DNA of 64,000 bases. Origin: Candidatus Multivoradales bacterium. Its GTDB lineage: Bacteria; Acidobacteriota; Thermoanaerobaculia; Multivoradales; JAHEKO01. Location of the stretch: NCBI GenBank assembly GCA_965248055.1, contig CBDFIJ010000004.1, positions 96,001-160,000 of the forward strand, in the 5' to 3' direction. Below are positions 8,206-27,022 of this stretch, one piece after another. Both the position numbers and the translations under genes were made by a program. The notes below the pieces were generated by a model. It saw only the letters and a program-made list of their open reading frames with translations. It was not told the origin of the DNA and searched no databases. Each line of letters begins with the position of its first letter. Within the stretch, counting starts at the first letter, position 1.

Positions 8206-8754
8206 ATGAACGTGGAATTCGTCGGTCGACATTACGAAATTGAGGATCGGGTCAAAGGTTATGCTGAGCAGCGATTAGCAGCCTCCGAGCGTTTCGCCGA
8301 CGAACCGATCCATGCTCATGTCGCTTTCACCCGTGAGGGTTATCGTTGTATCACCGACCTGCAGTTCTCCCATCGTGGTGGCAATCTGCACGCCACCGAA
8401 TCGGCAGACGACATGTTTGATGCCACCAACTTGGCGTTCGACAAACTCGACAAACAGTTGCGCAGAGCGAACAAGCGACGGGTAGACCGACGTCGGCGCG
8501 CCGATCACAAACGGGTCGAAGATGACCATTGGCCAGTCGATGTGGTCGGCGGTGATCAGTTGCGTTCAGGGGAAACAGAAGTGCTGCGTTCTTCCACTTT
8601 TGAAATTTGCGAGATGGATATGAACGCTGCGGTGGCTCAGCTGGAGACTTCGAAGAACCAATTCCTGATCTTCCGGCATTCAGCAACAGGCCAGACCACG
8701 GTTCTCTATAAACGCAAAGACGGTGACTATGGAGTGGTGTCTCCCGACGCCTAA
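8206..8754 (+). CDS. hpf: Ribosome hibernation promoting factor, long form
   Basis: S30AE-like N-domain and C-terminal domain (FLIFR...VLYKRKDGDYG); follows rpoN. Confidence 0.9.
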   Translation: MNVEFVGRHYEIEDRVKGYAEQRLAASERFADEPIHAHVAFTREGYRCITDLQFSHRGGNLHATESADDMFDATNLAFDKLDKQLRRANKRRVDRRRRADHKRVEDDHWPVDVVGGDQLRSGETEVLRSSTFEICEMDMNAAVAQLETSKNQFLIFRHSATGQTTVLYKRKDGDYGVVSPDA

Positions 8755-14183: not shown

Positions 14184-15128
14184 ATGGCACTGCCAAGAAT
14201 TGCGCGCTTCGGACTGGGTGTCTCTTTGCTAAGCGGGATAGTTGCTTGCGCACCACCCCTGCAGACCCTGAACCCGGTAACCCTACAACCGGACGCCCGG
14301 CGGACCGCTGGCTCCGACGGATTGACCGAAGCGCTGCCAATAGCGGAGTCGACAAAACCGAATCTAGCTGTGGACTCTGTAGCTACAGACCTAGCCGACC
14401 CAAGTGAGCCGGCAACCGCAGAACAGCCTGCTGTGAGTGACACCTCTATTGAAGTGGTGCCTCCGAAGACTCAAGTCATCTCTGGCGAATCCGACCAGGA
14501 AAGGCCGAGCCTGGTCGAGGTTGCTCGTCAAGAACAATTGCGCAGAGATACCAGCCCTAGTTCGCGTCTACGCATCGACGACAAGAATCTCAAGCGGCAC
14601 GCAACCGCCAATATGACCTCTGCCTTCCCGGACTCTAAAGTTGGGACTGAGTCTGGCGCTCAAGCGGCTGCGGAGATCTCGGAAAGCGATGATTCGGCAC
14701 AGCAAGAGGCGGCAGTCGAGTCCGAACGATACTGGCGTGCGCTGGTACGGGAGCTGCGTTACGACTGGCAGGATCTAGTCTTTGAAGAAGAAAACCTTGA
14801 GCAGGAGGTCGAACGCCTGCGCAAGGAATACTACCAAGAGGATGACCCCTATTATCGAGACGGTGAGATCAAGCCGGAGTGGGACGCCAGTTGGCAGTCA
14901 CTACAAGCCACCACACTGGCAATCCAAGAGGCGATCAACAAGCTAGACCGAGCGATTGAAGAAGGTCGACGCGCCGGAGCTCTGCCCGGCTGGTTGCGCG
15001 AAGGAGTCGAGTTGGAACCGATCGACTCTTCGACTGAGTCGCGGAACTACGACACCGGGAATCAATTCGGCGCCGCCGACGCAGTGGAACCGAATGAAGC
15101 GTCCGAAGCGGTGGAGATCGAGCCGTGA
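14184..15128 (+). CDS. Hypothetical lipoprotein with coiled-coil C-terminal region
   Basis: Lipobox-like IVAC after a hydrophobic stretch; SLVEVAR and RRAGALPGWLR motifs. Confidence 0.65.
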   Translation: MALPRIARFGLGVSLLSGIVACAPPLQTLNPVTLQPDARRTAGSDGLTEALPIAESTKPNLAVDSVATDLADPSEPATAEQPAVSDTSIEVVPPKTQVISGESDQERPSLVEVARQEQLRRDTSPSSRLRIDDKNLKRHATANMTSAFPDSKVGTESGAQAAAEISESDDSAQQEAAVESERYWRALVRELRYDWQDLVFEEENLEQEVERLRKEYYQEDDPYYRDGEIKPEWDASWQSLQATTLAIQEAINKLDRAIEEGRRAGALPGWLREGVELEPIDSSTESRNYDTGNQFGAADAVEPNEASEAVEIEP

Positions 15129-16498
15129 GCGCGACCAATCGCTACTACATCGAAACCTGGGGCTGCCAGATGAACGAGTTGGACAGCCAGCGGATGCGTG
15201 GCCAACTGGAACGTCAGGGGATCCTTCCGACCGACAAGCCCGAGGATGCCGATGTCATCTTGCTCAATTCTTGCTCGGTACGCGAAAAGGCGGAGCACAA
15301 GGTCTATTCGCGACTGGGGGTTTTTCGTCAGTACAAGGACCAGCGGCCTGGGATGCGCATTGGCCTGTGCGGTTGCGTCGCTGAGCAAGAAGCTGAGCGC
15401 GCCTTGAAACGGATGCCCGACCTGGACTTCGTCCTGGGTACCGGGCGCATTGGCGAACTGACCGACGTGTTGCTGTCTGCATCCAAGGGTAGGCGCAGGG
15501 CGGTGATCGGATTTCCGGAACACTCTGACTATGACCTAGACACGATTTCCCGCGACGGGACGTTCAAGGGCATGGTCACCCTGATCGAAGGTTGCGACAA
15601 GAAGTGTACGTTTTGTGTGGTCCCCACCACCCGCGGTGGTGAACGCTGTCGATCGATGTCTCTGGTGCTGCAAGAGGTCCGTGGGTTGGTGGAGAAGGGC
15701 TTTATCGAGATCGAGCTTCTCGGTCAGACCGTCAATCACTGGCGCGACCCAGAATCCGACGCCGATTTTGCCGACATGCTGCACGCGGTGGCCGAGATCG
15801 AAGGTGTCGAGCGACTGCGCTTCGTCACCTCTTATCCGCGCGACTTCACCCGGAGAATGGTCGAGGCTTTCGCCAGTCACCCCAATATTTCACCCTACTT
15901 GCACCTCCCGGTGCAATCTGGATCGAACCAAGTCTTGCACTGGATGGGACGCGGATACACGGTTGAAGAATATCTAGATCTGGTAAGCCTGATCCGCGAA
16001 CTGCGCCCAGAGACCGCGTTGTCCACCGACATCATCGTCGGCTTTCCCGGCGAAACCGACGACGATTTTCAAAAGACTCTCGGCCTGATCGAACAATTGC
16101 GTTTCGCGTCGTTCTTCGCTTTCTGCTATTCGCCGCGGCCCCACACCGCGGCGCCTAAGCTGCCTCTCGACGAAGTGCCCGAAGCGGTGGCCAAAGAGCG
16201 CCTGCACATTCTCCTCAATGTCCAAGAGGGAATCCAAAGAGAGCTCAACCAAGCCCTGATCGGCGAACGTTTTCAGGTCTTGGTCACCGGACCGGGCCGC
16301 GATCAAGGCACCCTGGTGGGCCGTACCCCCTGCCATCGACAGATCCATTTCGAGGGTTCGATCTACCGGACCCCTCCCGGTCGTCTGGTGGATGTTGAAG
16401 TGCAACGGGCGCACCCCCACAGCTTGGGCGGCCGACCGATCGCAGTTCCACCGACCACGCAGCCCAAGCAATCTTTTGCGCAAGGGGCACGAGCGTGA
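15125..16498 (+). CDS. miaB: tRNA-i6A37 methylthiotransferase
   Basis: TWGCQMN, NSCSVREKAE, radical SAM CDKKCTFC, HLPVQSGS, TDIIVGFPGET, TRAM domain. Confidence 0.96.
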   Translation: MSATNRYYIETWGCQMNELDSQRMRGQLERQGILPTDKPEDADVILLNSCSVREKAEHKVYSRLGVFRQYKDQRPGMRIGLCGCVAEQEAERALKRMPDLDFVLGTGRIGELTDVLLSASKGRRRAVIGFPEHSDYDLDTISRDGTFKGMVTLIEGCDKKCTFCVVPTTRGGERCRSMSLVLQEVRGLVEKGFIEIELLGQTVNHWRDPESDADFADMLHAVAEIEGVERLRFVTSYPRDFTRRMVEAFASHPNISPYLHLPVQSGSNQVLHWMGRGYTVEEYLDLVSLIRELRPETALSTDIIVGFPGETDDDFQKTLGLIEQLRFASFFAFCYSPRPHTAAPKLPLDEVPEAVAKERLHILLNVQEGIQRELNQALIGERFQVLVTGPGRDQGTLVGRTPCHRQIHFEGSIYRTPPGRLVDVEVQRAHPHSLGGRPIAVPPTTQPKQSFAQGARA

Positions 16499-16986
16499 GC
16501 GAGCGCAGTTACGTCGGCATGTCGGTCAAGGGGTTGATCGTCGATCCATCCTCCGACTCGCCGGTGGTGATATTGGAGGACGAGAAGCACGAGGTCTTCC
16601 TGCCGATTTGGATTGGCAACTACGAGGCCAGCGCCATCGCTCTGCGCATCGAAGGAATCGAGCCACCGCGACCGATGACCCATGACCTGCTGGCTCAAGT
16701 GGTTCGAGACGGGCGCATGCGGCTGCAGGAAGCCAGGGTCTCCTCGTTGCGCGACGGAACCTTCTACGCTGAGCTGGAGTTCGATTTGGATGACCAATCG
16801 TTGGTTTTGGACGCACGCCCCAGCGACGCCATCGCTCTTGCCTTGCGGATGCAGTGCCCGATCAAGGTCGCCGCGGACGTGCTCGAAGAGGCGAAAGCAG
16901 TACGTCTGGCTACCACCGACGAGGAACGGGTCAAAGAGTGGCTGGAAAATGCCAAGCCTGAAGAGTTTGGCGAGTTTGAGATGTAA
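16495..16986 (+). CDS. Bifunctional nuclease family (DUF151) protein
   Basis: LPIWIG, RPMTHDL, DARPSDAIALA. Confidence 0.92.
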   Translation: MSERSYVGMSVKGLIVDPSSDSPVVILEDEKHEVFLPIWIGNYEASAIALRIEGIEPPRPMTHDLLAQVVRDGRMRLQEARVSSLRDGTFYAELEFDLDDQSLVLDARPSDAIALALRMQCPIKVAADVLEEAKAVRLATTDEERVKEWLENAKPEEFGEFEM

Positions 16987-17065
16987 CCGCTGCCGCTAGC
17001 AGTGCAAATTATCAAGGTCCGATAGTGAGCATCGTGGCCAGCCGAGAAGACCAGATCCATATCGA

Positions 17066-17083
17066 TTGTCGGCGCGCCGACAA
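17066..17083. promoter_or_regulatory. Perfect 18-bp palindrome TTGTCGGCGCGCCGACAA, candidate parS-like site
   Basis: Loopless palindrome in intergenic DNA; 16-bp core has the TGT...ACA format of parS; parAB lies 3.2 kb downstream. Confidence 0.5.
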
Positions 17084-17518
17084 GGGGGTCCGGGAAATGG
17101 AACGAAAACGTACGCTAAGAGCCAGTGAGAGGCTTTGTTCCGATACCCGTTAGCGGCTGCCTACGCCAAGGGAAACCGGTCCTTTGAGGGTAGCCAAAAA
17201 CCTCTGTCACCCTGTGGCCTAGAGAGCCAGCATATCCGGGTGTCCAAGTTGCTCACAAACGGGTGGCTGAAACCTATAACTTTTGGCCAGGTGTGCATCG
17301 AGCAACGGCGGCGCAGGCCGCGGACTAACCGGCCCCCTAGCTTCGGGTGGGCTTGCGCGTGTCCGACGGAGGTCATTGGAGCTCGGCTCGTCGTTTACAG
17401 TAATTTCCACACCGTTGCGGCTCAAGCCTCAAACCTAGGGGTCCGGCGGCGAGGAGGCCAGCGAGATTGCCCCCGGTCGTTCATCCAAGGTTCAGACACC
17501 GAGTGTTCTTGTTGAATC

Positions 17519-18340
17519 ATGATCGAGCGCAAGAGATTCCTACTACTTTGGATCGCAGCCATCTTGGCCTTTGGCTGGCGCTTGTCGTCACCGTGGCGGC
17601 AACAGTCCGCTGTCTTGGCGGGCGATCTGTCAGAGCTGGACCATACAATGTTCGTGACCCTGGGCGTGATGGGGCTCGGTTTCATTGCTTGTGGCCTGAT
17701 CGCTCATCATTGGGCAGGTACGAGAGCGAGCTGGCTCTTCGCCCTCTACGCCGTATTCGCGGGTCTCCACTGGGGTGGGCCGCTTGGTGTCTCTACCAAC
17801 GCCTGGATTGTGTATCTGTTCATGAGTGGCTTCCTCAGCGAGGCTTTGTTGCTTCACTTCACGCTGGTTTTTCCGCAGCCGCTGCGGCCGCACTTGCCCC
17901 GCTGGATGCCTATCTTGCTCTACGGTCCGGTTGCGGTGTCAGGTCTAGTGGCGGCGACGATCGTCGCCCTGACGCCTCATATGCCGGTTGCGCAAGCGCT
18001 GACACAGGTCTTCTTGGGTCTCCACGCGACGGTTCCCAACCTCTTCGCTGTCTTGACGATTGTCGTCGTTGGAATTCGCTTCGCGCGCGCGATACCAGCC
18101 GAACGCCGCGCAGACGGGCTGACCTTCCTCTTGCTCGGCATGGTGTTCGGAGTCGGTCCTTACCTGGGAGTTTTGACCGCCGGGGCGACGGGAGTCGAGC
18201 TTCCCGGCGGGCCCCAGCCTTACAACCTGTTCTTTATTCTGATCCCGATCGGCTTCTGCGCTGCGATCCTCCGCCACCGCGCGTCTTCTCTCCAGAAGGC
18301 CGCAACGCAAATAGGCACAGCACTGCACAGCACGTTGTAG
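17519..18340 (+). CDS. Multi-pass membrane protein (about 7-8 TM), putative accessory sensor
   Basis: Alternating hydrophobic segments, LLHFTLVFP and YNLFFILIPIGFCAAIL; 19 bp upstream of the response regulator. Confidence 0.75.
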   Translation: MIERKRFLLLWIAAILAFGWRLSSPWRQQSAVLAGDLSELDHTMFVTLGVMGLGFIACGLIAHHWAGTRASWLFALYAVFAGLHWGGPLGVSTNAWIVYLFMSGFLSEALLLHFTLVFPQPLRPHLPRWMPILLYGPVAVSGLVAATIVALTPHMPVAQALTQVFLGLHATVPNLFAVLTIVVVGIRFARAIPAERRADGLTFLLLGMVFGVGPYLGVLTAGATGVELPGGPQPYNLFFILIPIGFCAAILRHRASSLQKAATQIGTALHSTL

Positions 18341-18359
18341 GATCTGCACGGAGCGAGGA

Positions 18360-19022
18360 ATGCGAGTGTTGGTGGTAGAGGATGAGCCCGAGTTGGCCAA
18401 ACAGCTGGCCGATCAGCTTTCCGCGGAAGGATACGCAGTGGATCTGGTTGCGGACGGAGCGGAAGCTCGGCACCTTGGGGCAACCGAGCCGTACGATGTC
18501 ATCGTCCTCGATCTCGGCCTGCCTTCGCTCGACGGCCTGTGCGTGCTGGAGAGCTGGCGGAGCGCGGGCCTCTCGACCCCTGTGCTGATCCTGACCGCTC
18601 GTGGGCGCTGGCATGAACGCGTGGCCGGCATAGACGCCGGCGCCGATGACTATCTTCCCAAGCCGTTCCGCATGGAGGAGCTCTCCGCCCGGGTCCGAGC
18701 ATTACTGCGGCGCGCCGGCGGCTCAGGCTCGGCTGAGCTGTGTTACGGAGGAGTTACTCTCGACACGCGCTCTCTCAAGGTCCGGCTCGACGGTGACCCG
18801 GTTCAGATGACATCGCACGAGCTGAGGGTCCTCCGATACCTCCTTCACAATGCTGGTCGCACCATCTCTCAAGCAGAGCTCATCGAGCACATCTATGCCC
18901 AGGATTTCGATCGGGACTCGAACACCATCGAAGTGTTCGTCGCTCGGATACGCAGAAAACTGGGAGCGGATCTGATTCGAACCGTGCGCGGTCTCGGCTA
19001 CCAGATCCCCGCCGACCGATGA
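18360..19022 (+). CDS. OmpR/PhoP-family response regulator
   Basis: VLVVEDE, LDLGLP, LILTAR, GADDYLPKPF, winged helix SNTIEVFVARIRRKL...TVRGLGY. Confidence 0.95.
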   Translation: MRVLVVEDEPELAKQLADQLSAEGYAVDLVADGAEARHLGATEPYDVIVLDLGLPSLDGLCVLESWRSAGLSTPVLILTARGRWHERVAGIDAGADDYLPKPFRMEELSARVRALLRRAGGSGSAELCYGGVTLDTRSLKVRLDGDPVQMTSHELRVLRYLLHNAGRTISQAELIEHIYAQDFDRDSNTIEVFVARIRRKLGADLIRTVRGLGYQIPADR

Positions 19023-19975
19023 AGCGCGCTTCGCTGCGGGCCGCAATCCTCATCGGCGGGCTCCTCTGGGCAGCGGGGGCTGTGCTGTTGGCGGCGGCGG
19101 GCTACCTTCCCGGTGGCGGCGCCTGGATCGCTGTGGTTTGCAGCCTCGCCATCGTCCTGATGGTAGCGGGCGTGCTCACCGTGGTCGTCGGCTTCCTGCC
19201 ACTCGGTCGCCTGAGTCGGCGTCTCGTCTCAGTTCGGAAAGGCGCATCAGACCGTCTCGACGGTAGCTATCCGAAGGAGGTACAACCTCTGATCGACGAC
19301 CTCAACGACCTCCTGCGACGCAATCAGGAGGCGCTCGAGCGCTCGCGCCTCGAAGCCGACAACCTCGCCCACGGTCTCAAGACGCCGCTGGCAATCCTCG
19401 GCAATGAGCTCCAGCGTCTGGCAGCCGAGGGGGAGATCTCAACCGGGGACATGCGCCAACAGGTAGAGGCAATGACCGCGCAGGTCGAGCTTCACCTTGG
19501 CCGGGCTCGAGCCGCCGCCGCTCACCTTGCCCATCCTCCGGAGTCGACTTGCGAAGTCCTTCCGTCGGTCGAACGATTGAACCGCACCATGCGCAAGCTT
19601 CACCAAGAGAAGGCCCTGAAGATCGAAGTCGACGTCACGCCGGAACTCACCTTCTGCGGCGATCGTGAAGATCTTGAGGAGGTGCTGGGCAACCTTCTAG
19701 ATAATGCGTGCAAGTGGGCTCGAAGTAAGGTGGTGATCGGGGCCCAGACTTCGGGAGACCGGGTTACGCTCACGGTGGAAGACGATGGGCCCGGGCTCTC
19801 TGAGCTAAAGCGCACTGTCCTGGCGCGGGGCCACCTCCTCGGCGACCCGAGACCTGGCGGCGGTATCGGCCTGAAGCTGGTCCAGAACGTGGTCCGGCTC
19901 TATGGCGGCAAGGTGGCTTTCAAGGAGTCCCGGTTTGGCGGTTTGCGAGTTGTTCTGGAGCTGCCAAGCGGTTAG
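19019..19975 (+). CDS. Sensor histidine kinase lacking an extracytoplasmic domain
   Basis: Two TM helices with a very short loop, HAMP-like linker, H-box AHGLKTPL, NLLDNACKW, DDGPG, GGGIGL. Confidence 0.92.
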   Translation: MKRASLRAAILIGGLLWAAGAVLLAAAGYLPGGGAWIAVVCSLAIVLMVAGVLTVVVGFLPLGRLSRRLVSVRKGASDRLDGSYPKEVQPLIDDLNDLLRRNQEALERSRLEADNLAHGLKTPLAILGNELQRLAAEGEISTGDMRQQVEAMTAQVELHLGRARAAAAHLAHPPESTCEVLPSVERLNRTMRKLHQEKALKIEVDVTPELTFCGDREDLEEVLGNLLDNACKWARSKVVIGAQTSGDRVTLTVEDDGPGLSELKRTVLARGHLLGDPRPGGGIGLKLVQNVVRLYGGKVAFKESRFGGLRVVLELPSG

Positions 19976-20167
19976 GTCGACCGCTCGTTTGAAGCTGCGG
20001 GACTGCAAAAAGGTGATCTGATCGTCGCGATCGATGGGACTCCGGTGTATGAACCCGCGTGTCGGGATCCCAGCGGCGAGCTGGCGGGGCTGCCCAAAGT
20101 GCTGCCTTACCTTCCTGAGGGACTCCAAGCGGAAGCGGTCATCAAGACTGAGATTCTCATCCCGTGA
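19976..20167 (+). pseudogene. PDZ-domain fragment without a start codon
   Basis: Frame after the kinase TAG reads VDRSFEAAGLQKGDLIVAIDGTPV, matching the PDZ signature AGLxxGDxIxxIDG. Confidence 0.55.
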
Positions 20168-20270
20168 GACAGGGGGCCGAACAGCACCAGTTCCTGGTCA
20201 GTTCTTGATTATCGATTCGCATTGGCAAACCAAGGGTTTGGGCTAAACTCTACGCAGCCGACTCGAGCCC

Positions 20271-21026
20271 ATGATTATCACCATTACCAACCAAAAAGGC
20301 GGCGTGGGAAAGACCACAACGGCGATCAACCTAGCGGCTGGCCTCGCTGCCAAGGGCCTTAAAACCCTGTTGCTGGACCTGGATCCGCAGTCGAACGCCA
20401 CCCTCAGCTTTGTCAGTGCGAAAAACCAACGCCTGTCCTTGTTTGAGGTGATGACCGGTGAGGCCGCCTTGTCCGATGTCTTGTTGCAAGTGGAGAAGGC
20501 TCCCAATTTGACCCTGGGGCCTGCAGCCCTGGCACTTGCCAAACTGGAAACCAAACTGATCGGCGAGATCGATGCCCACTACAAGCTGACCGACCAATTG
20601 CAGATGGTTCGAGATCAGTTTGACTACGTGGTGATCGACACTCCGCCCACTCTTGGCTTGATCACGGTCAATGCTTTGGTCGCCGCCACCCACGTCTTAA
20701 TTCCGGTGCAAAGCAGCTACTTTGCGTTGGAGGGAACCGACGACCTTCTCGAAACCATTGATCGAGTTAAAGTGCGGGCGAATCCTGATCTGCAGATCCT
20801 TGGAGCGGTACTCACCCTCTATGACAAGCGCACGTTGCTCTCCCGGGATATCGAAGCGCAAGTGGAGAAGGTGTTTGGCAGCAAATTATTTGAAACTCGG
20901 ATTCATAAGAACGTCCGGTTGGAAGAGAGCCCGGCCTACCAAGAGGCGATCTTCAGCTACGCCCCCCGCTCGACCGGCGCCTACGATTACTATCGACTCT
21001 CTGAGGAGGTGCTGAGCCGTGTCTAG
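20271..21026 (+). CDS. parA: ParA/Soj family partition ATPase
   Basis: NQKGGVGKTT, DLDPQSNAT, IDTPPTLG, VRLEESP. Confidence 0.95.
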   Translation: MIITITNQKGGVGKTTTAINLAAGLAAKGLKTLLLDLDPQSNATLSFVSAKNQRLSLFEVMTGEAALSDVLLQVEKAPNLTLGPAALALAKLETKLIGEIDAHYKLTDQLQMVRDQFDYVVIDTPPTLGLITVNALVAATHVLIPVQSSYFALEGTDDLLETIDRVKVRANPDLQILGAVLTLYDKRTLLSRDIEAQVEKVFGSKLFETRIHKNVRLEESPAYQEAIFSYAPRSTGAYDYYRLSEEVLSRV

Positions 21027-21912
21027 CAGCAAGAAGGGATTACCCAACCGGGTCAAGATGCGCCACTCTTCGCATTTCGTCGACGAATTGGCGGTACGTT
21101 CCGAACAACCGATTGGCAAGATGGTGCAGATCGACGTTCTCGAAGCCGACCCAGATCAACCCCGAGTGGATTTCGGCAACATCGAGGAGCTGGCTGAGTC
21201 CATACGCTCCAAGGGAGTGCTCGAGCCGATCTTAGTGCGCCCTTTACCACGCCAACGTGGGGAAGCGCCTAGCTACCGAATCATTTCCGGCGAACGCCGC
21301 TTTCGCGCTGCCACGGCTGCGGGGCTTCCAGAAGTTCCGGTGATCGAGATGGACCTGGATGACGATGAAGCGCTAGAAGTCGCGCTAATCGAAAATCTGC
21401 AGCGCAAAGACCTGGATCCCTTTGAGGAGGCCGAAGGATTGCAGGCTCTGAGAGATCGCTTCGAATACACCCACGAGCAGATCGCCAGCACCATGGCGAA
21501 GTCGAGGCCGGTGATCACCGAAGCCTTAACCTTGCTGCGTATTCCGGCGCTGCTGAGACAACTTGCGCGGGAACACGGCATGATGACCAAGTCTTTGCTG
21601 TTGGAGATCGCCAAACTCGGCAGCCAAGAAGAAATGCAAGCGTTGTTTGCCCAGGCGCTTTCGGGCAACCTGACCCGAGATCAAGTTCGTGATCAAGTGC
21701 GCGCCAGGAGCCCCGAGGGTGCCAAGAGCGCCCGACGACGCCCGACCTTTCGCTTTGCCGGCCCTGATGAAAGCTTCAAGGTCGCTTTGACCTTTGAGAC
21801 CGAGGCCGTAGAACGCCACGACGTCATCCGGGCGCTGGAACATATCTTGGAAGGTCTGCGCGAGGCGGAGCATCAAGAGGACAGTATCGGTTCTCCTGAA
21901 ACTCTTTTTTGA
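21019..21912 (+). CDS. parB: ParB family CTPase / partition protein (atypical N- and C-termini)
   Basis: DQPR, GVLEPILVR, ISGERRFRAA, ALIENLQRKDL, HTH THEQIA...KSRPVITEAL. Confidence 0.93.
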   Translation: MSSSKKGLPNRVKMRHSSHFVDELAVRSEQPIGKMVQIDVLEADPDQPRVDFGNIEELAESIRSKGVLEPILVRPLPRQRGEAPSYRIISGERRFRAATAAGLPEVPVIEMDLDDDEALEVALIENLQRKDLDPFEEAEGLQALRDRFEYTHEQIASTMAKSRPVITEALTLLRIPALLRQLAREHGMMTKSLLLEIAKLGSQEEMQALFAQALSGNLTRDQVRDQVRARSPEGAKSARRRPTFRFAGPDESFKVALTFETEAVERHDVIRALEHILEGLREAEHQEDSIGSPETLF

Positions 21913-22022
21913 CAGGAGTGTTGAGCACATAAGGGGAACTTGCAACGGGTCTGGGGTGGGGAGAAGGAAGGTGCGATTGCGAGAGTCGAACAAAGGCGGC
22001 TCCTGACACTAGGCTGTATGTA

Positions 22023-22050
22023 GGTTTACATAATACACCTTATCAGACAC
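22023..22050 (-). other. dif site (XerC/XerD recombination site)
   Basis: Minus strand GTGTCTGATAA-GGTGTA-TTATGTAAACC has the 11-6-11 layout of E. coli dif (GGTGCGCATAA-TGTATA-TTATGTTAAAT); intergenic; gene orientation converges on this region. Confidence 0.85.
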
Positions 22051-22194
22051 TGGGTACGCCCCTATAGCTCTGATCAGTTACCCGGTTTTCCCCTTCTGCT
22101 GTACTCTTGAATCAGCGGTTGTCGAGTTCGGTTTTCTGGCCCGGGATCTGCTTAAAACAAACGATCTGCCATAGTTTTTTCTTCCAGCAACTCC

Positions 22195-24552
22195 GTGCCT
22201 GCCATTTTTTCCAAGATCGACCGCTACGTTGCCAGCGAGATCCTAGGGCCGTTCGGCCTGGGGTGTGTGGTCTATACGCTGATCCTGTTTCTCCACTTTC
22301 TACTCCAGGCGTCAAAAATGGTGTTCGCCCGCGGGGTTCCGCTGGGTGACGTTCTCGCCTTGATCGCCTACTACCTGCCGAGCATGCTGGTGCTGGTGAT
22401 CCCGATGGCCTTTCTGTTCGCCACGCTGATGGCGGTCGGACGTCTGTCGGGTGACAGCGAGATTACCGCGTTACGAGCTTCCGGTGTGGGCCTGTTCAAG
22501 CTCTACCTCCCATTACTTTGGTTTTCGCTGGCGCTCACTGTGCTGAGTATTTATCTAATGACAGCGGTTTTACCTTTCTCCAACGCCCGCTACACTTCGA
22601 CCATTTATCGAATTCAGACCCGCCATGCTACTCAGGTGGTTGAACCCCGTGAGTTTCACACCGATTTGGGCGCCTGGGTGATGTACGTCTTTGGTCTGAC
22701 CGCTGACCGCAGCGAGTGGGACGGGGTGTTCTTGGCGCAGGAAAACGCTCCAGGGCAATCGGAAGTGATGGTCGCAGAGCTTGGGCATCTCGCCTTTGAC
22801 GAGTCGACCCAGGAACAAGTCCTGCAGCTGACCAATACCGAATCGCACATTATCGACCTCAAGGAGAGTTTTGCCGACGCGCAGTATCGGCTCGGCTTTC
22901 TGCGCACCTACGAGAAAGTCGTCCAGGGCGGCACGGGCATTGAAACAGGAGACCGCAAGGTCGAAAAAAACTTGCGTTCGATGACGTTGGCTGAACTCAA
23001 GCGAGAGCGCAATGACCCAACGCGCGCGGAGACCATCCGCCGGATGGCCTTGGTTGAGGCGCACAAAAAGTTCTCGCTACCGGCAGCCTGTATCGGCTTC
23101 GGTTTATTCGCTCTGCCCTTCGCTTTCGGTTCGCAACGAGGCTCAGGGGCTAAGTCGGCCAGCTTCGCGCTCTCTTTATTGGTGATCGCTTTCTACTACA
23201 TCCTGCTCGAGCAAGGAGAGAAAGCTGCACGGTTGGACAATATGAGTCCCTGGCTGGCCATGTGGCTCCCCAACCTCATCCTGATGGCAGTCGGTGCTTA
23301 CCTATTTTGGCGCCGCAATCGGGACAAGAGCCTGCTACTCGGGCGCGCGGATCGCTTGCTCCGTCAGCTGCCCCTAGCCGCATTCGTAGCCCAGGCCTGG
23401 GCGCGGGTGCGCACAGCGTTTGCCCGGCTCAGAGGTTCGGCCAGCGATCGCTCGTGGATGCAGTTTCCCTCACGCAATGACCGCTACATTCTGCGTCTGT
23501 TTTTCACCGTCGCGGGCCTAACCATGGCCTCGATGATGCTGCTTGCCGCATTGGCACGATTTACCCGAGTCGCGGATCGACTGCAAGAACACAATCTGGC
23601 TTCCAGCGATGTCTGGCGCTACCTCGGAACGGTGGTTTTGGATACTGGTTACCTGATGACTCCGGTGGTGGTGTTGATGGCAACAGTGCTCGCGTTCGCC
23701 TTGTTGTCTCGAAGCAACGAAGTGGTTGCCTGGAGGTCGACGGGCGTCAGCCTCTATCGACTGGCACTGCCGATTCTGGTGGCTACCGCCGGAATTTCCC
23801 TCGGTACCTTTCTGCTCGACGAGTATCTGCTGCCAGCAAGCAATCAGGAAAAACAACGCCTTGAAGACCAAATTTATGGTCGTCAGTCCCAAAGCTTCCG
23901 CCGCGCTGATCGACAATGGCTGTTCGGCCAAGATCGCTTTATCTACCATTACTCCAGCTACGACCAAGAGCAAGAGGCGCTGATCGAACTTGAGGTCTTT
24001 GAGTTCGACGCGGACAGTAAGTTGGTTCGGCGGCTCTATGCCACGCAAGCGGTCTACCAAGGTGAAGGCGCGTGGCTGTTTGATCGCGGCTGGACACGAT
24101 CCTTCGCCGGGGGCGAGGTGGTCGACTTCCGTTGGTTTGAAGAGCCTCATACCGCCCGTTTCCCAGAGACCCCCGACTATTTCCGAGAAGAAGAACGCCA
24201 GCCGGCGCAGATGACCTTTGGCCAACTCAGCCAACACGTCGAAAACCTAGAACGCAGCGGCCAGCCCAACCTAAAGTACCGGGCACAGCTGTATCGCAAG
24301 ATCGCCTACCCCGCCGGTTGTTTGGCCATGGCGTTGGTGGCACTACCGTTTTCGTTTCGCGTAGGTCGTGAGGGGGGAGCGCTGTACGGGGTCGGCCTAG
24401 CCCTGGGACTAGCCATTGCCTTTATCGTGCTGGACTCGATCTTCACCACCCTGGGTGAGACCGGCACCCTGCCACCCTTGCTCGCGGTGTGGGCGCCGTC
24501 TGCTCTATTCTCCACTTTGGCTGTTTATTTGTTCCTCGGAGTGCGCTCTTAA
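22195..24552 (+). CDS. Fused LptF-LptG LPS export permease
   Basis: Two YjgP/YjgQ modules in one ORF (GRLSGDSEITALRASG; LSRSNEVVAWRSTG), each ending in W-x-P. Confidence 0.9.
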   Translation: MPAIFSKIDRYVASEILGPFGLGCVVYTLILFLHFLLQASKMVFARGVPLGDVLALIAYYLPSMLVLVIPMAFLFATLMAVGRLSGDSEITALRASGVGLFKLYLPLLWFSLALTVLSIYLMTAVLPFSNARYTSTIYRIQTRHATQVVEPREFHTDLGAWVMYVFGLTADRSEWDGVFLAQENAPGQSEVMVAELGHLAFDESTQEQVLQLTNTESHIIDLKESFADAQYRLGFLRTYEKVVQGGTGIETGDRKVEKNLRSMTLAELKRERNDPTRAETIRRMALVEAHKKFSLPAACIGFGLFALPFAFGSQRGSGAKSASFALSLLVIAFYYILLEQGEKAARLDNMSPWLAMWLPNLILMAVGAYLFWRRNRDKSLLLGRADRLLRQLPLAAFVAQAWARVRTAFARLRGSASDRSWMQFPSRNDRYILRLFFTVAGLTMASMMLLAALARFTRVADRLQEHNLASSDVWRYLGTVVLDTGYLMTPVVVLMATVLAFALLSRSNEVVAWRSTGVSLYRLALPILVATAGISLGTFLLDEYLLPASNQEKQRLEDQIYGRQSQSFRRADRQWLFGQDRFIYHYSSYDQEQEALIELEVFEFDADSKLVRRLYATQAVYQGEGAWLFDRGWTRSFAGGEVVDFRWFEEPHTARFPETPDYFREEERQPAQMTFGQLSQHVENLERSGQPNLKYRAQLYRKIAYPAGCLAMALVALPFSFRVGREGGALYGVGLALGLAIAFIVLDSIFTTLGETGTLPPLLAVWAPSALFSTLAVYLFLGVRS

Positions 24553-24554
24553 CG

Positions 24555-25382
24555 ATGCTGATCATTGGGGTATTTCTTCTCGCTCTTGCTGCTGGGGTGG
24601 TCTCAACTTCGTTTTGGATTCGTGAAGAGGACTTGGGACGAGGCTATTTTCAAACCAATGCTCTGGTGATCCTCGGGCTGCTGGCGATCGTCGTCGGGCT
24701 GGTGGCGACCGGAGTGATCATGCCGTGGCCAGCGGACTCCCCATCCAGTGCGCAGTTGGATGGCTCCGGGACAATCCCAAGGACCCTCCTGCTCTACGTT
24801 GGATTCGCCTTTTCTTTACTGGCTTACGCTGGCATCTGGTCACGAAAATGGTTCTTGGGACGCCTCGCCGCGGGAGGCGCTTTGGTTACCCTGAGCTTGG
24901 CTCTGTGGCTGATCGATCTGCCGCTGCGTTTCAGCTACGTCCTGCCAATTTTGGGCAGGGTGAGCCTGTTGCTTTCTGCCTTGGTGTTGGGCTGGTCGAT
25001 GGTCACCATGCTGTTGGGCCACTGGTATTTGGTCGCGCCCATGTTGGACTTCCGCCATCTGCGACGCTTTAGCTGGATCCTCACCGTACTGCTTGTGCTG
25101 CGCGCCTTAGCTTCACTGCTGGCAATGTTCTTGGCTTCCCGACTCCCTGACCCGCAAAGTTGGTGGGCTCTCACCTCGGGTGGCGGTTGGGCGATGTTCC
25201 TCTGGATACGAGTCCTCTGGGGACTGTTGGGCGCATTGTTGCTGTCGGGGATGGCACTACATTGCGCACGCCAGGGATCCAACCAATCAGCGACCGGCAT
25301 CTTGTACGTGGTGATCATTAGCGTGTGGATCGGAGAGGCCACTGCATTGTTCCTGCTGGCAATGACCGGAGTGCCAGTTTGA
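24555..25382 (+). CDS. Uncharacterised polytopic membrane protein
   Basis: About 8 hydrophobic segments; MLLGHWYL and QSATGILY motifs. Confidence 0.7.
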   Translation: MLIIGVFLLALAAGVVSTSFWIREEDLGRGYFQTNALVILGLLAIVVGLVATGVIMPWPADSPSSAQLDGSGTIPRTLLLYVGFAFSLLAYAGIWSRKWFLGRLAAGGALVTLSLALWLIDLPLRFSYVLPILGRVSLLLSALVLGWSMVTMLLGHWYLVAPMLDFRHLRRFSWILTVLLVLRALASLLAMFLASRLPDPQSWWALTSGGGWAMFLWIRVLWGLLGALLLSGMALHCARQGSNQSATGILYVVIISVWIGEATALFLLAMTGVPV

Positions 25383-25415
25383 TCGGCGGTAGTTTCCTCA
25401 AGCTGTAGCGAACCT

Positions 25416-25886
25416 ATGATCGTAAGAAGCACTCTGGACCCGATGGAGATTCGCACCCAGTGCCGAGAGTGTGGGCTCCCCTTCTCCACTTCGATCAGCC
25501 CTAACCAAGAACACTTGCCCTGCCCGAACTGCGAACACTCGCGGAGCTTGGATTGGAGCACCTACGACCCCGCACAGGCAACCACGGTTCCGTGCTGCGT
25601 GGTTTGCGGTTGCAAGCATCTCTACCGACAGCGAGACGTCAACCGGGCGATCGGCTGCTTGGTGGTGGCCATCGCCATCGTCCTGACCCCGTGGACCTAT
25701 GGTCTGTCGCTGGTGGTGGCAGCGGCGATCGATTGGTGGCTGTGGTACCACTTGGAGGAGCGGCCGGTTTGCTATCGCTGCGACACGGTCTATCGAGACG
25801 CGATCCCAACCGCTAGGCAGAAGGAGTTCGACCTCCTACGCCACGACGTACTGAAATATGGAAAGTCTTGGGAAGACGCCGACTAG
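25416..25886 (+). CDS. Membrane-anchored zinc-ribbon protein
   Basis: Four CxxC pairs (CREC, CPNC, CVVC, CYRC) around a TM hairpin. Confidence 0.72.
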
Positions 25887-27022
25887 ACTGCGGCGGCCAC
25901 CTTTTCAGCCAGGTCGGTTCTTTCCCAGGTGAAGGCGTCCTCTTCGCGACCAAAATGACCGTAAGCCGCGGTCGGTCGATAGATCGGACGGCGCAGGTCA
26001 AGATGCTCGATGATCCCGGCCGGAGTGAGCGGAAAGACCTCTCGCACCACGGTCTCAAGCAAACGATCGTCGGCGGTGCCGGTGCCGTGGCTGTCAACTC
26101 GGATTGAAACCGGATCAGCGACGCCGATTGCATAGGCCAACTGGACCGTCACTCGATCGGCCAGGCCACTGGCGACAAGGTTCTTGGCCACGTAGCGCGC
26201 CATGTAGGAGGCCGAACGGTCGACCTTGGTCGGATCTTTGCCGGAGAATGCCCCACCACCGTGGGGCGCCATCCCGCCGTAAGTGTCAACGATAATCTTG
26301 CGTCCGGTGAGGCCACAGTCGCCCTTGGGGCCGCCAACCACAAAACGTCCGGTCGGGTTGATATGAACAATCAATTGGTCGTCCACCAGTTCCGCAGGCA
26401 GCTCCGGTCGAATCACTTCTTCGCGCACCAGGTCGTGTAGATCTTCGGTCGAGATATCTTCAGAATGCTGGGTTGAGACAACCACGGTGTGTACCCTGGC
26501 CGGCCGGTCCCCTTGGTACTCAATCGTCACCTGACTCTTGCCGTCGGGTCTCAAGTCTTTTTGCCCAGCCTTACGCACCTGCGCCAATCGCATGGTCAAA
26601 GCGTGAGCCAAACTGATCGGTAACGGCATCAATTCAGCGGTTTCGCGGCACGCGTAGCCAAACATCAGCCCTTGGTCCCCGGCCCCACCGGGATCCACGC
26701 CCATGGCAATGTCCGGAGATTGGGAATCGATCGAGGTGATCACTGCGGCATCGGTGGCGTCAAAACCAATTCCCCGGTCGACGTAGCCGATTTCTTCGAG
26801 CGTCTGCTGGGTTACTTTGCGAAAATCGATAAAGGCATCGGTGGTCATTTCCCCTGCCAGGACCACCAGTCCGGTGGTGACCAAAGTTTCGCAAGCGACC
26901 CGACCATTGGGATCTTCGGCCAAAACTGCATCCAAAACCGCGTCGGAGATCTGATCCGAGACCTTGTCAGGATGCCCCTCAGTGACCGACTCTGATGTAA
27001 ATAGCGAACGTTCGTCCGACAT
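25883..27022 (-). CDS. metK: S-adenosylmethionine synthetase
   Basis: [49 protein letters not shown]. Confidence 0.98.

Follow-up and report, generated by a model that had tools for sequence, protein, structure and literature searches.

The ParABS systems of textbooks are machines for segregating replication origins, and the handling of the replication terminus is ascribed to FtsK, XerCD, MatP and the unloading of SMC. Here, we analyze a parA-parB pair (parA2-parB2) in a 64,000-nucleotide stretch of the chromosome of Candidatus Multivoradales bacterium (Acidobacteriota, Thermoanaerobaculia; GenBank assembly GCA_965248055.1, contig CBDFIJ010000004.1, positions 96,001 to 160,000 of the forward strand), hereafter the window. 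The pair is directly followed by dif, the dimer resolution site, and is accompanied by a perfect 16-bp palindrome, TGTCGGCGCGCCGACA, that is likely to be its centromere (parS2), given its rarity in the genome, its place in or beside the parAB2 operon and its co-occurrence with ParB2. These features appear to be best explained by a separate system that consists of a predicted Soj-type ATPase, a ParB with CTP-binding motifs and a site unlike the canonical parS. That this is a second chromosomal ParABS, with a function in positioning or segregating the terminus, is the explanation that we favor, with moderate confidence.

What is new is a ParABS whose candidate centromere has a novel sequence and whose place on the chromosome is novel as well. 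To this are added the occurrence of both partition systems on a single closed-looking chromosome, one at each skew extremum, the natural separation of parS2 from parA2 through an insertion, the cross-tabulation of the presence and absence of the palindrome and of ParB2, and codon evidence on an intragenic form of the palindrome. Literature listings and the opening parts of abstracts contained nothing on a terminus ParABS, on a ParB beside dif in Acidobacteria or on the palindrome.

A second parAB operon at the replication terminus

The genome of the window (G000) is assembled in four contigs, of which C4, a closed-looking chromosome of 3.35 Mb with a GC content of 0.57, includes the window (C4:96001-160000). 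The GC content of the other three contigs (C1-C3; 14.8, 16.7 and 28.4 kb) is 0.39-0.43, compared to 0.57 for the chromosome, and these may be plasmids, phage or contamination.

On the minus strand, dif reads GTGTCTGATAA-GGTGTA-TTATGTAAACC and starts 110 bp past the parB2 stop codon, in agreement with the preliminary description of the locus, made from the sequence alone, which had placed dif directly after parB. This 28-bp bipartite site is the only match to the RTAA-N6-TTATGTNAA pattern in all four contigs and, at 40.5 bits with a weight matrix derived from a set of 42 related sites, the only chromosomal match of at least 12 bits. The site is located at a GC-skew switch, as that description had anticipated: the maximum of the cumulative skew, at C4:122,000, is 4 kb away from dif (C4:118,023), and the skew changes from +0.036 and +0.084 in the two 50-kb blocks on the left side of dif to -0.069 and -0.057 in those on the right. 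The genome encodes XerD (C4:481,882; 354 bits, cut-off 329.6), a second Xer-like recombinase (C4:1,809,145; 303.6 bits) and an FtsK gamma domain (C4:2,891,634; 96.3 bits).

The skew minimum (C4:1,946,000) coincides with dnaA (C4:1,946,182-1,946,661), and the sole other gene in G000 that encodes a ParB_N domain (parB1, C4:1,962,000) lies 15 kb from dnaA, with parA1 upstream; its product, ParB1, has the canonical N-terminus RGLGRGLDALL. This region with dnaA and the canonical parAB1 is 1.83 Mb away from dif, with replication arms of 1.83 and 1.52 Mb. The proposal that parA2-parB2 is a second partition system on this chromosome is thus supported and, as judged by the skew extrema, dif and dnaA, the parA2-parB2 module sits at the terminus, opposite dnaA and parAB1.

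The two genes are organized as an operon in which parB2 starts with a GTG codon that overlaps the parA2 stop; parA2 is found directly upstream of parB2 in all 30 loci from the order to which G000 belongs and in all 80 loci from named metagenome-assembled genomes (MAGs). Open reading frames, Pfam matches and motif invariance all concur with the original view of an intact pair with a Walker A motif, a GERRxRA motif and a helix-turn-helix (HTH) domain. The N-terminus of ParA2 begins MIITITNQKGGVGKTT, with a deviant Walker A motif (NQKGGVGKTT, residues 7-16), and residues K9, G10, G11, G13, K14, T15, D36, D38 and D123, which cover the signature lysine and the Walker A' and B aspartates, are invariant among 21 orthologues. 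ParA2 matches AAA_31 with 189 bits (CbiA is matched as well), and its nearest protein of known structure is Thermus thermophilus Soj (1wcv; E 1.2e-53, residues 3-251), with Helicobacter pylori Soj also highly similar (6iub; E 1e-45) and MinD and MipZ far weaker matches. The identity between ParA2 and ParA1 is 42%.

ParB2 contains the ParB_N (PF02195; 93.4 bits, cut-off 26.3) and HTH_ParB (PF17762; 53.1 bits, cut-off 22.6) domains and matches the NCBIfam model TIGR00180 parB_part (145.3 bits, cut-off 58.45). In the same number of orthologues (21), G91, E92, R93, R94 and A97 of the GERRxRA motif, along with E125, N126, L127, Q128 and R129 (ENLQR), are invariant. The related proteins with solved structures are the ParBs of Myxococcus xanthus, Caulobacter crescentus, T. 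thermophilus and Bacillus subtilis (E 1e-34 to 1e-27), and the AlphaFold2 (AF2) model of ParB2 (pLDDT 85) overlays ParB-CTP and ParB-parS structures, with a TM score of 0.77 (target-normalized) and an rmsd of 3.4 for the C. crescentus ParB-parS complex (6t1f_D). From these motifs and similarities, ParA2 is predicted to act as the partner ATPase and ParB2 as a CTP clamp.

The termini of ParB2, noted previously as atypical, are indeed unusual and are conserved throughout the ParB2 family. The N-terminus is of the type KRGLPxRVKMRHxxHFVEEL, with no match to the canonical ParA-contacting motif RGLGRGLxALL, and residues 243-289 at the C-terminus, where a dimerization domain might be expected, are confidently modeled as a strand-strand-helix unit with a sequence unlike that of ParB1. 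Comparison of 109 ParB2 and 17 ParB1 sequences reveals clade-specific residues (ParB2/ParB1) in the HTH region, namely, E168/N, K191/G, S192/Q and L195/R, and further differences at H19/R (in the N-terminal motif), E69/Q, R220/A and R224/E. These ParB2-specific residues fit an altered DNA specificity and a private ParA partner.

Prediction of a complex of two ParA2 chains with ATP and residues 1-45 of ParB2 yielded a score of 0.53, compared to 0.02 for the best of three controls, with at least 72% of the contacts in agreement between runs and a partner pLDDT of at least 50. Of 80 solved complexes, 58 passed the mark for a positive prediction, as did 2 of 110 mismatched pairs; the passing scores of 0.60 or less included only 7 of the 80 solved complexes, yet both of the passing mismatched pairs, and the calibration is rough, with custom alignments and a riding ligand. 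The prediction hints at a contact between ParA2 and the ParB2 N-terminus, and the pass may reflect a likeness to solved ParA-ParB pairs.

In a maximum likelihood tree of 55 ParB2 sequences (every second one of the 109, leaving out 54), 17 ParB1 sequences and four outgroups, all ParB2 fall on one side of a branch with an SH-aLRT support of 97 and all ParB1 on one side of another branch with a support of 95; the four long outgroup branches do not form one group, so that the tree is effectively unrooted and no order of events is claimed. A ParB2-type match was detected in 38 of the 41 relatives in the order, the remaining three genomes being 62-89% complete, and in each of the 30 genomes sampled from the class. 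A search of 72,556 plasmid records for related ParBs gave at best 38% identity (E no better than 7e-22), and the GC content of the module region, 0.567, is close to that of the chromosome (0.57). The tree and this distribution indicate an old module that has been passed on vertically within Acidobacteriota.

A candidate centromere near parAB2

The preliminary description had noticed no canonical parS in the window, and this stands in that no canonical site with at most one mismatch exists in the G000 genome; what it had missed is the non-canonical candidate, parS2, 3.2 kb upstream of parA2. The palindrome emerged from counting 12-mers common to the loci of relatives. In the 3.4-Mb G000 genome, TGTCGGCGCGCCGACA is the only copy with at most one mismatch, and it differs from the canonical parS in 10 of the 16 positions. 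The best match to the canonical parS in G000 (two mismatches; C4:1961037) falls on the 5' end of the parA1 reading frame, at a distance of 14.6 kb from dnaA, a position that mirrors that of parS2 upstream of parA2 in the relatives.

In 28 of the 30 order loci, the palindrome precedes parA2 by 50-450 bp, with at most one mismatch in 26 and with two mismatches in two, the two exceptions being the locus of G000 itself (for which the extract was too short) and a truncated locus. It is present, with at most one mismatch, in 36 of the 41 genomes of the order, mostly in one or two copies, with arrays of five and nine copies in two genomes, whereas the reversed pattern, used as a control, yielded a single match in each of two genomes. 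In other classes, the palindrome lies inside parB2, where it encodes C-R-R/H/L/Q-A-D, or just past parB2. Among 109 distinct loci that were scored within their flanks at the one-mismatch level, it was found upstream of parA2 in 46, inside parB2 in 17, in both places in three and downstream of parB2 in one; in the remaining 42, it was not found within the flanks. Exact k-mer search of 38 loci without the palindrome detected no common palindrome and only conservation at the coding level.

Codon usage within the intragenic palindrome indicates that selection acts at the DNA level: TGT serves as the Cys codon in all 20 loci with the palindrome, compared to 2 of the 41 in which the Cys is kept without the palindrome.

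For the phylum as a whole, we searched 301 genomes of at least 90% completeness, in which the best E-values for ParB2 are bimodal; the following counts were tallied by hand and, given that related genomes are not independent, are descriptive rather than tests. About 175 genomes contain a ParB2-type match (E 6e-44 or lower), 120 have only matches at the level of ParB1 (1e-35 to 1e-23), and six have none. Search for TGTCGGCNNGCCGACA was positive in 131 of the 301 genomes, and the palindrome is present in 130 of the 175 ParB2-positive genomes vs 1 of the 126 ParB2-negative ones (G101). Among the 53 genomes with both coordinates listed, the palindrome is within 3 kb of parB2 in 48; in the other five, the distance is 5.3-5.7 kb in two and 10 kb in one, and in two, the palindrome is on another contig. 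The counts over the order and the phylum include the unpublished genomes G002, G062, G182 and G087, which are not the sole basis of any claim and the exclusion of which shifts each count by at most 3. Across these genomes, the palindrome co-occurs and co-localizes with parAB2.

The locus of G000 itself provides a natural displacement of the site. Comparison with the same-genus genome G001 using blastn shows that the gap between the upstream BFN-domain gene and parA2 is about 140 bp in G001 and 3.28 kb in G000; a 3.15-kb insertion in G000 (window positions 17083-20270), absent from G001, separates parS2 from parA2. The palindrome is still perfect despite this displacement, which argues against it being a mere parA2 operator.

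Two further observations concern the number and spread of such sites. Within three mismatches of the palindrome, there are 17 other sites in G000, three of which lie within 14 kb of dif (C4:104491, 105323 and 126575, that is, window positions 8491, 9323 and 30575) vs 0.16 expected; this comparison is post hoc, and the three could represent weak secondary sites or else match by chance on the GGCGCGCC core. In family f63 (G189:C1:1,260,076-1,313,240; G136:C60; G124:C83), palindromes are scattered over tens of kilobases around parAB2, resembling the clusters of parS around origins.

Linkage to dif and possible roles of the module

As in G000, dif follows parB2 in most of the relatives. Within the order, dif is found in the 1.5-kb 3' flank of parB2 in 24 of the 30 loci, and in five more genomes, the sole genome-wide dif match lies 2.3-3.3 kb downstream of parB2, so that dif is within 3.5 kb in 29 of the 30 loci, the sixth remaining locus (G023) being covered by its flank only. 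The 80 loci from named MAGs, which carry the labels Thermoanaerobaculia, Holophagales, Blastocatellia/Pyrinomonadaceae, Chloracidobacterium, Vicinamibacteria, Polarisedimenticolaceae and Terriglobia/Acidiferrales (two with odd labels, and several with short flanks), include 39 with a dif of at least 15 bits, 35-4,520 bp downstream of parB2. In the set of 109 loci, dif was found in 62, at up to 300 bp in 36 and up to 1 kb in 53; the spacing between parS2 and dif in the 49 loci with both sites is 0.45-2.85 kb (median, 1.78 kb).

Closed and near-closed genomes from other families extend the pattern. In all five single-contig genomes from two other families, there is one match to a generic dif pattern, 23-796 bp downstream of parB2, and the distance to dnaA amounts to about 47-54% of the chromosome (with rounded genome sizes). 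The reversed generic pattern yields 0-1 matches per genome, so the occurrence of a single match is unremarkable, and it is the position beside parB2 that is remarkable. The dif pattern held in three of five further families (G320, G239 and G281; 191-538 bp), so that dif lies within 0.8 kb of parB2 in 8 of the 10 closed or near-closed genomes of other families. The position of the orthologues relative to dif is therefore not random, nor are they confined to plasmids. There are exceptions: in G189, 38.5 kb separate parB2 from the skew switch and a dif-like site of 21 bits, with four palindromes spread over 53 kb around the operon, and G117 and G077 contain only weak dif candidates, 31-33 kb away. 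From these positions, the module appears to be a feature of the terminus region that usually, but not always, abuts dif. In genome G019, two ParB2 matches (on C1 and C5) each have an adjacent palindrome, and the C1 match shares the ParB2 ends and dif with the C1 locus of G012; this could represent a duplicate replicon, a mixed bin or shared sequence.

The genes around the module are housekeeping genes, encoding MiaB-like, BFN-domain, fused LptFG and MetK proteins according to Pfam and NCBIfam; the coordinates of all features in the window are given in the table. The MiaB/RimO-like and BFN genes overlap and are translationally coupled, and the insertion downstream of parS2 comprises genes for a membrane protein, a response regulator and a histidine kinase. 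The scan for promoters upstream of parA2 found one site vs 1.4 expected in shuffled sequences, and the promoter and terminator scan overall performed no better than shuffles. Search of window positions 15000-27000 against Rfam produced no match at the gathering score, which includes the 530-bp intergenic stretch (16987-17518) that holds parS2.

Features of the parAB2 locus, in window coordinates
Feature	Position	Strand	Evidence and remarks
MiaB/RimO-like radical-SAM methylthiotransferase gene	15125..16498	+	Pfam UPF0004 and Radical_SAM; upstream context, no functional part claimed
BFN_dom (bifunctional-nuclease-domain) gene, 163 aa	16495..16986	+	PF02577, 134.9 bits
Candidate centromere parS2, 16-bp palindrome	17067..17082	.	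Intergenic; rarity and co-occurrence with parAB2
Lineage-specific insertion between parS2 and parA2	17519..19975	+	Pfam; blastn vs G001
Membrane protein gene, 273 aa	17519..18340	+	No Pfam family; within insertion
OmpR-type response regulator gene	18360..19022	+	Pfam; within insertion
Histidine kinase gene	19019..19975	+	Pfam; within insertion
Promoter-like site TTGGCA-16-TAAACT, 22 bp 5' of parA2 start	20222..20249	+	Consensus scan; weak evidence
parA2, predicted Soj-type deviant-Walker-A ATPase, 251 aa	20271..21026	+	Open reading frame, Pfam, NCBIfam
parB2, ParB family with CTPase motifs, 297 aa	21019..21912	+	Open reading frame, Pfam, NCBIfam
dif, dimer resolution site (11-bp arm, 6-bp center, 11-bp arm)	22023..22050	-	Pattern and weight matrix
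Fused lptF-lptG permease gene, 785 aa	22195..24552	+	Pfam, NCBIfam; frequent neighbor beyond dif, context only

The upstream neighborhood is conserved in relatives. The BFN gene is found directly upstream of parA2, on the same strand, in 86 of the 109 loci (97 of which had an upstream flank of at least 700 bp), with a gap of 24-446 bp in 79 of the 86, and tblastn detects a MiaB-like gene further upstream in 60. The BFN gene is the conserved 5' neighbor of parA2 and might be a third part of the terminus module. For the gene beyond dif, a crude rule was applied to 35 named loci, taking the longest open reading frame that starts within 1.2 kb: fused lptFG was found in 13, metK in six, five other Pfam families in one locus each, and genes without a family in 11. 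Fused lptFG follows dif also in G001.

Several observations weigh against a terminus-segregating role of the module that involves dif. ParB2 is missing from about 126 of the 301 phylum genomes, whole families included, and the system is therefore dispensable there. The palindrome as defined is absent from 45 of the 175 ParB2-positive genomes and from the flanks of the 42 loci mentioned above, and G000 has a single good copy of parS2; the binding of ParB2 to the palindrome is argued from co-occurrence, and the predicted contact of ParA2 with ParB2 amounts to a hint. No dif of at least 15 bits was found inside the flanks of 47 of the 109 loci, including all those labeled Terriglobia or Acidiferrales, and the orientation of dif relative to parB2 varies among the order loci. 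Finally, the upstream synteny (miaB-like gene, BFN gene, parA2) is no less conserved than the dif linkage and, given this stable block of miaB-like, BFN and lptFG genes, part of the adjacency of parB2 and dif may reflect inherited gene order rather than selected linkage.

Taken to its full extent, the latter possibility would make the adjacency to dif simply inherited, with parABS2 being a working partition-type system, or a ParB-based organizer, in which dif is not involved. The stable block, the occurrence of lptFG beyond dif in 13 of the 35 loci and the variable dif orientation are compatible with this scenario, as are the Terriglobia-type loci, which keep the upstream block with no dif within 5 kb, and G189, G117 and G077, where the best dif candidates are 31-39 kb away. 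In G189, however, the module is still within about 40 kb of the skew switch, that is, the terminus location is kept even there. Furthermore, the link of parB2 and dif persists with at least seven different Pfam families beyond dif and across families in which ParB2 is only 42-50% identical, and terminus regions are commonly regarded as relatively plastic parts of chromosomes. We consider mere inheritance of gene order unlikely.

It is also conceivable, if improbable, that ParB2 and parS2 chiefly load, block or unload the SMC condensin at the terminus, with ParA2 as an accessory. The arginine patch of the GERR motif, invariant in the 21 ParB2 orthologues, is of the type needed for SMC recruitment in model ParBs, and G000 encodes a full-length SMC (C4:3,332,995-3,336,489; 881 bits, cut-off 567). 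However, our analysis yielded no link between SMC and the locus, and the retention of ParA2 with ParB2 in 110 of 110 loci points to ATPase-driven positioning.

The divergence of the ParB2 N-terminus from the canonical ParA-contacting motif, and the location of the palindrome 58-180 bp upstream of parA2 in many relatives, a possible place for an operator, would suit a regulator akin to Noc or KorB, involved in nucleoid occlusion, division-site control or silencing around parS2. The apparent lack of MinC might be taken in the same sense, given that PF03775 was found neither in any of the 301 phylum genomes nor in G000; this blank is weak because a search of this type failed to detect the SMC hinge in G000 (PF06470, a false negative, as the full SMC model finds the gene), and there was no complementary pattern with ParB2. 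In contrast, Noc and KorB have no dedicated ParA in their operons, whereas parA2 is always present; the candidate sites number from one to a few and cluster at the terminus rather than being numerous and chromosome-wide; and the other positions of the palindrome, namely, within parB2, past its end or, in G000, 3.2 kb upstream of parA2, misfit a simple operator. Such a regulatory role seems quite improbable, and identity with Noc itself is rejected, considering the distribution of sites and the score of 135.9 bits with the Noc model TIGR04285, far below its cut-off of 315.

The last alternative, that the module is a remnant of a plasmid-like element, as raised in the preliminary description, or of an Xer-dependent element (integrative mobile element exploiting Xer, IMEX) integrated at dif with its own partition genes, is very improbable: partition genes beside dif are what such integration would leave, and elements integrated at dif with parA/parB homologues are known, but no other dif-like site on the chromosome reaches 12 bits, open reading frames and Pfam searches revealed no integrase, relaxase or replication gene in the region at 14-26 kb, the GC content is native, the best plasmid ParB match is weaker than that to chromosomal ParB, and the module is present in all 30 class genomes and about 175 of the 301 phylum genomes as one ParB2 clade, so that a recent event is close to refuted, an ancient capture being conceivable.

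A terminus ParABS would be expected to work as follows. ParB2 would load at parS2 as a CTP clamp and spread to dif, over roughly 5 kb in G000 and about 1.8 kb in most relatives, with dif normally falling inside the usual spreading range of ParB clamps, which is a few kilobases. ParA2 on the nucleoid would position the resulting terminus complex, keeping it at mid-nucleoid while the terminus is present in a single copy and moving the two copies apart once the terminus has been replicated. In this way, dif and its surroundings would first be brought to the closing septum, the site of FtsK and XerCD action, and later be removed from it, and ParB2 clamps over dif could pair the sites or license XerCD recombination. 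Its bolder form, namely, that many Acidobacteriota chromosomes possess two centromeres, with ParABS2 positioning dif at the division plane and then pulling the sister termini apart, we put forward tentatively; the role of parABS2 in terminus positioning or segregation, or in linking dimer resolution to division, is what we infer from its location, gene content and candidate site.

Should this be the case, terminus segregation and dimer resolution would be ParA-driven rather than left to FtsK, MatP-like factors or entropy, and a ParABS at the terminus with its own centromere beside dif would be a new solution for positioning the terminus and coupling resolution to division, in a large and poorly studied phylum. 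ParB2 and parS2 would also provide a ParB-parS pair orthogonal to the canonical one for DNA-labeling tools. Given that the protein, the candidate site and the expected cell position are all defined, the idea is directly testable.

Comparison with known systems

Among the elements that carry parA/parB homologues beside dif, IMEX elements share this arrangement with the module, which differs from them in the lack of a second dif-like site and of mobility and replication genes, as well as in its native composition and phylum-wide vertical inheritance. The Noc-NBS system of Bacillota is similar to the module in that it employs a ParB paralogue with an altered specificity alongside the canonical ParB, and the ParB2 model overlaps the Noc structure 7nfu with a TM score of 0.70 (target-normalized); however, ParB2 falls short of the Noc cut-off, Noc functions without a ParA, and its sites are distributed chromosome-wide and avoid the terminus, whereas the candidate ParB2 sites are found at the terminus only.

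The MatP-matS system, which organizes the Ter macrodomain in enterobacteria, is likewise a site-specific terminus system around dif, but involves an unrelated protein family with no ATPase and no CTP switch, and many matS sites spread over hundreds of kilobases. A parallel in terms of gene content comes from the ParABS of multipartite genomes, such as ParAB1 and ParAB2 of Vibrio cholerae and those of Burkholderia cenocepacia, where one cell possesses two sets with different centromeres. In those bacteria, each set serves its own replicon near its origin, whereas the two sets of G000 share a single chromosome and lie across the replication map from each other.

The module is also similar to the chromosomal ParABS (Soj/Spo0J of B. 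subtilis and T. thermophilus, and the systems of C. crescentus and M. xanthus), with which it shares a Soj-type ParA, a ParB with the ParB_N and HTH_ParB domains and the GERR and ENLQR motifs, a parA-parB operon with an overlapping stop and start, and a 16-bp palindrome in or beside parB with the outer TGT...ACA. The differences lie in the N-terminal motif, the C-terminal domain and the predicted DNA-reading residues of ParB2, in the 10 substituted palindrome positions, and in the location beside dif at the terminus rather than at the origin, on a chromosome where the module coexists with a canonical, origin-side parAB1.

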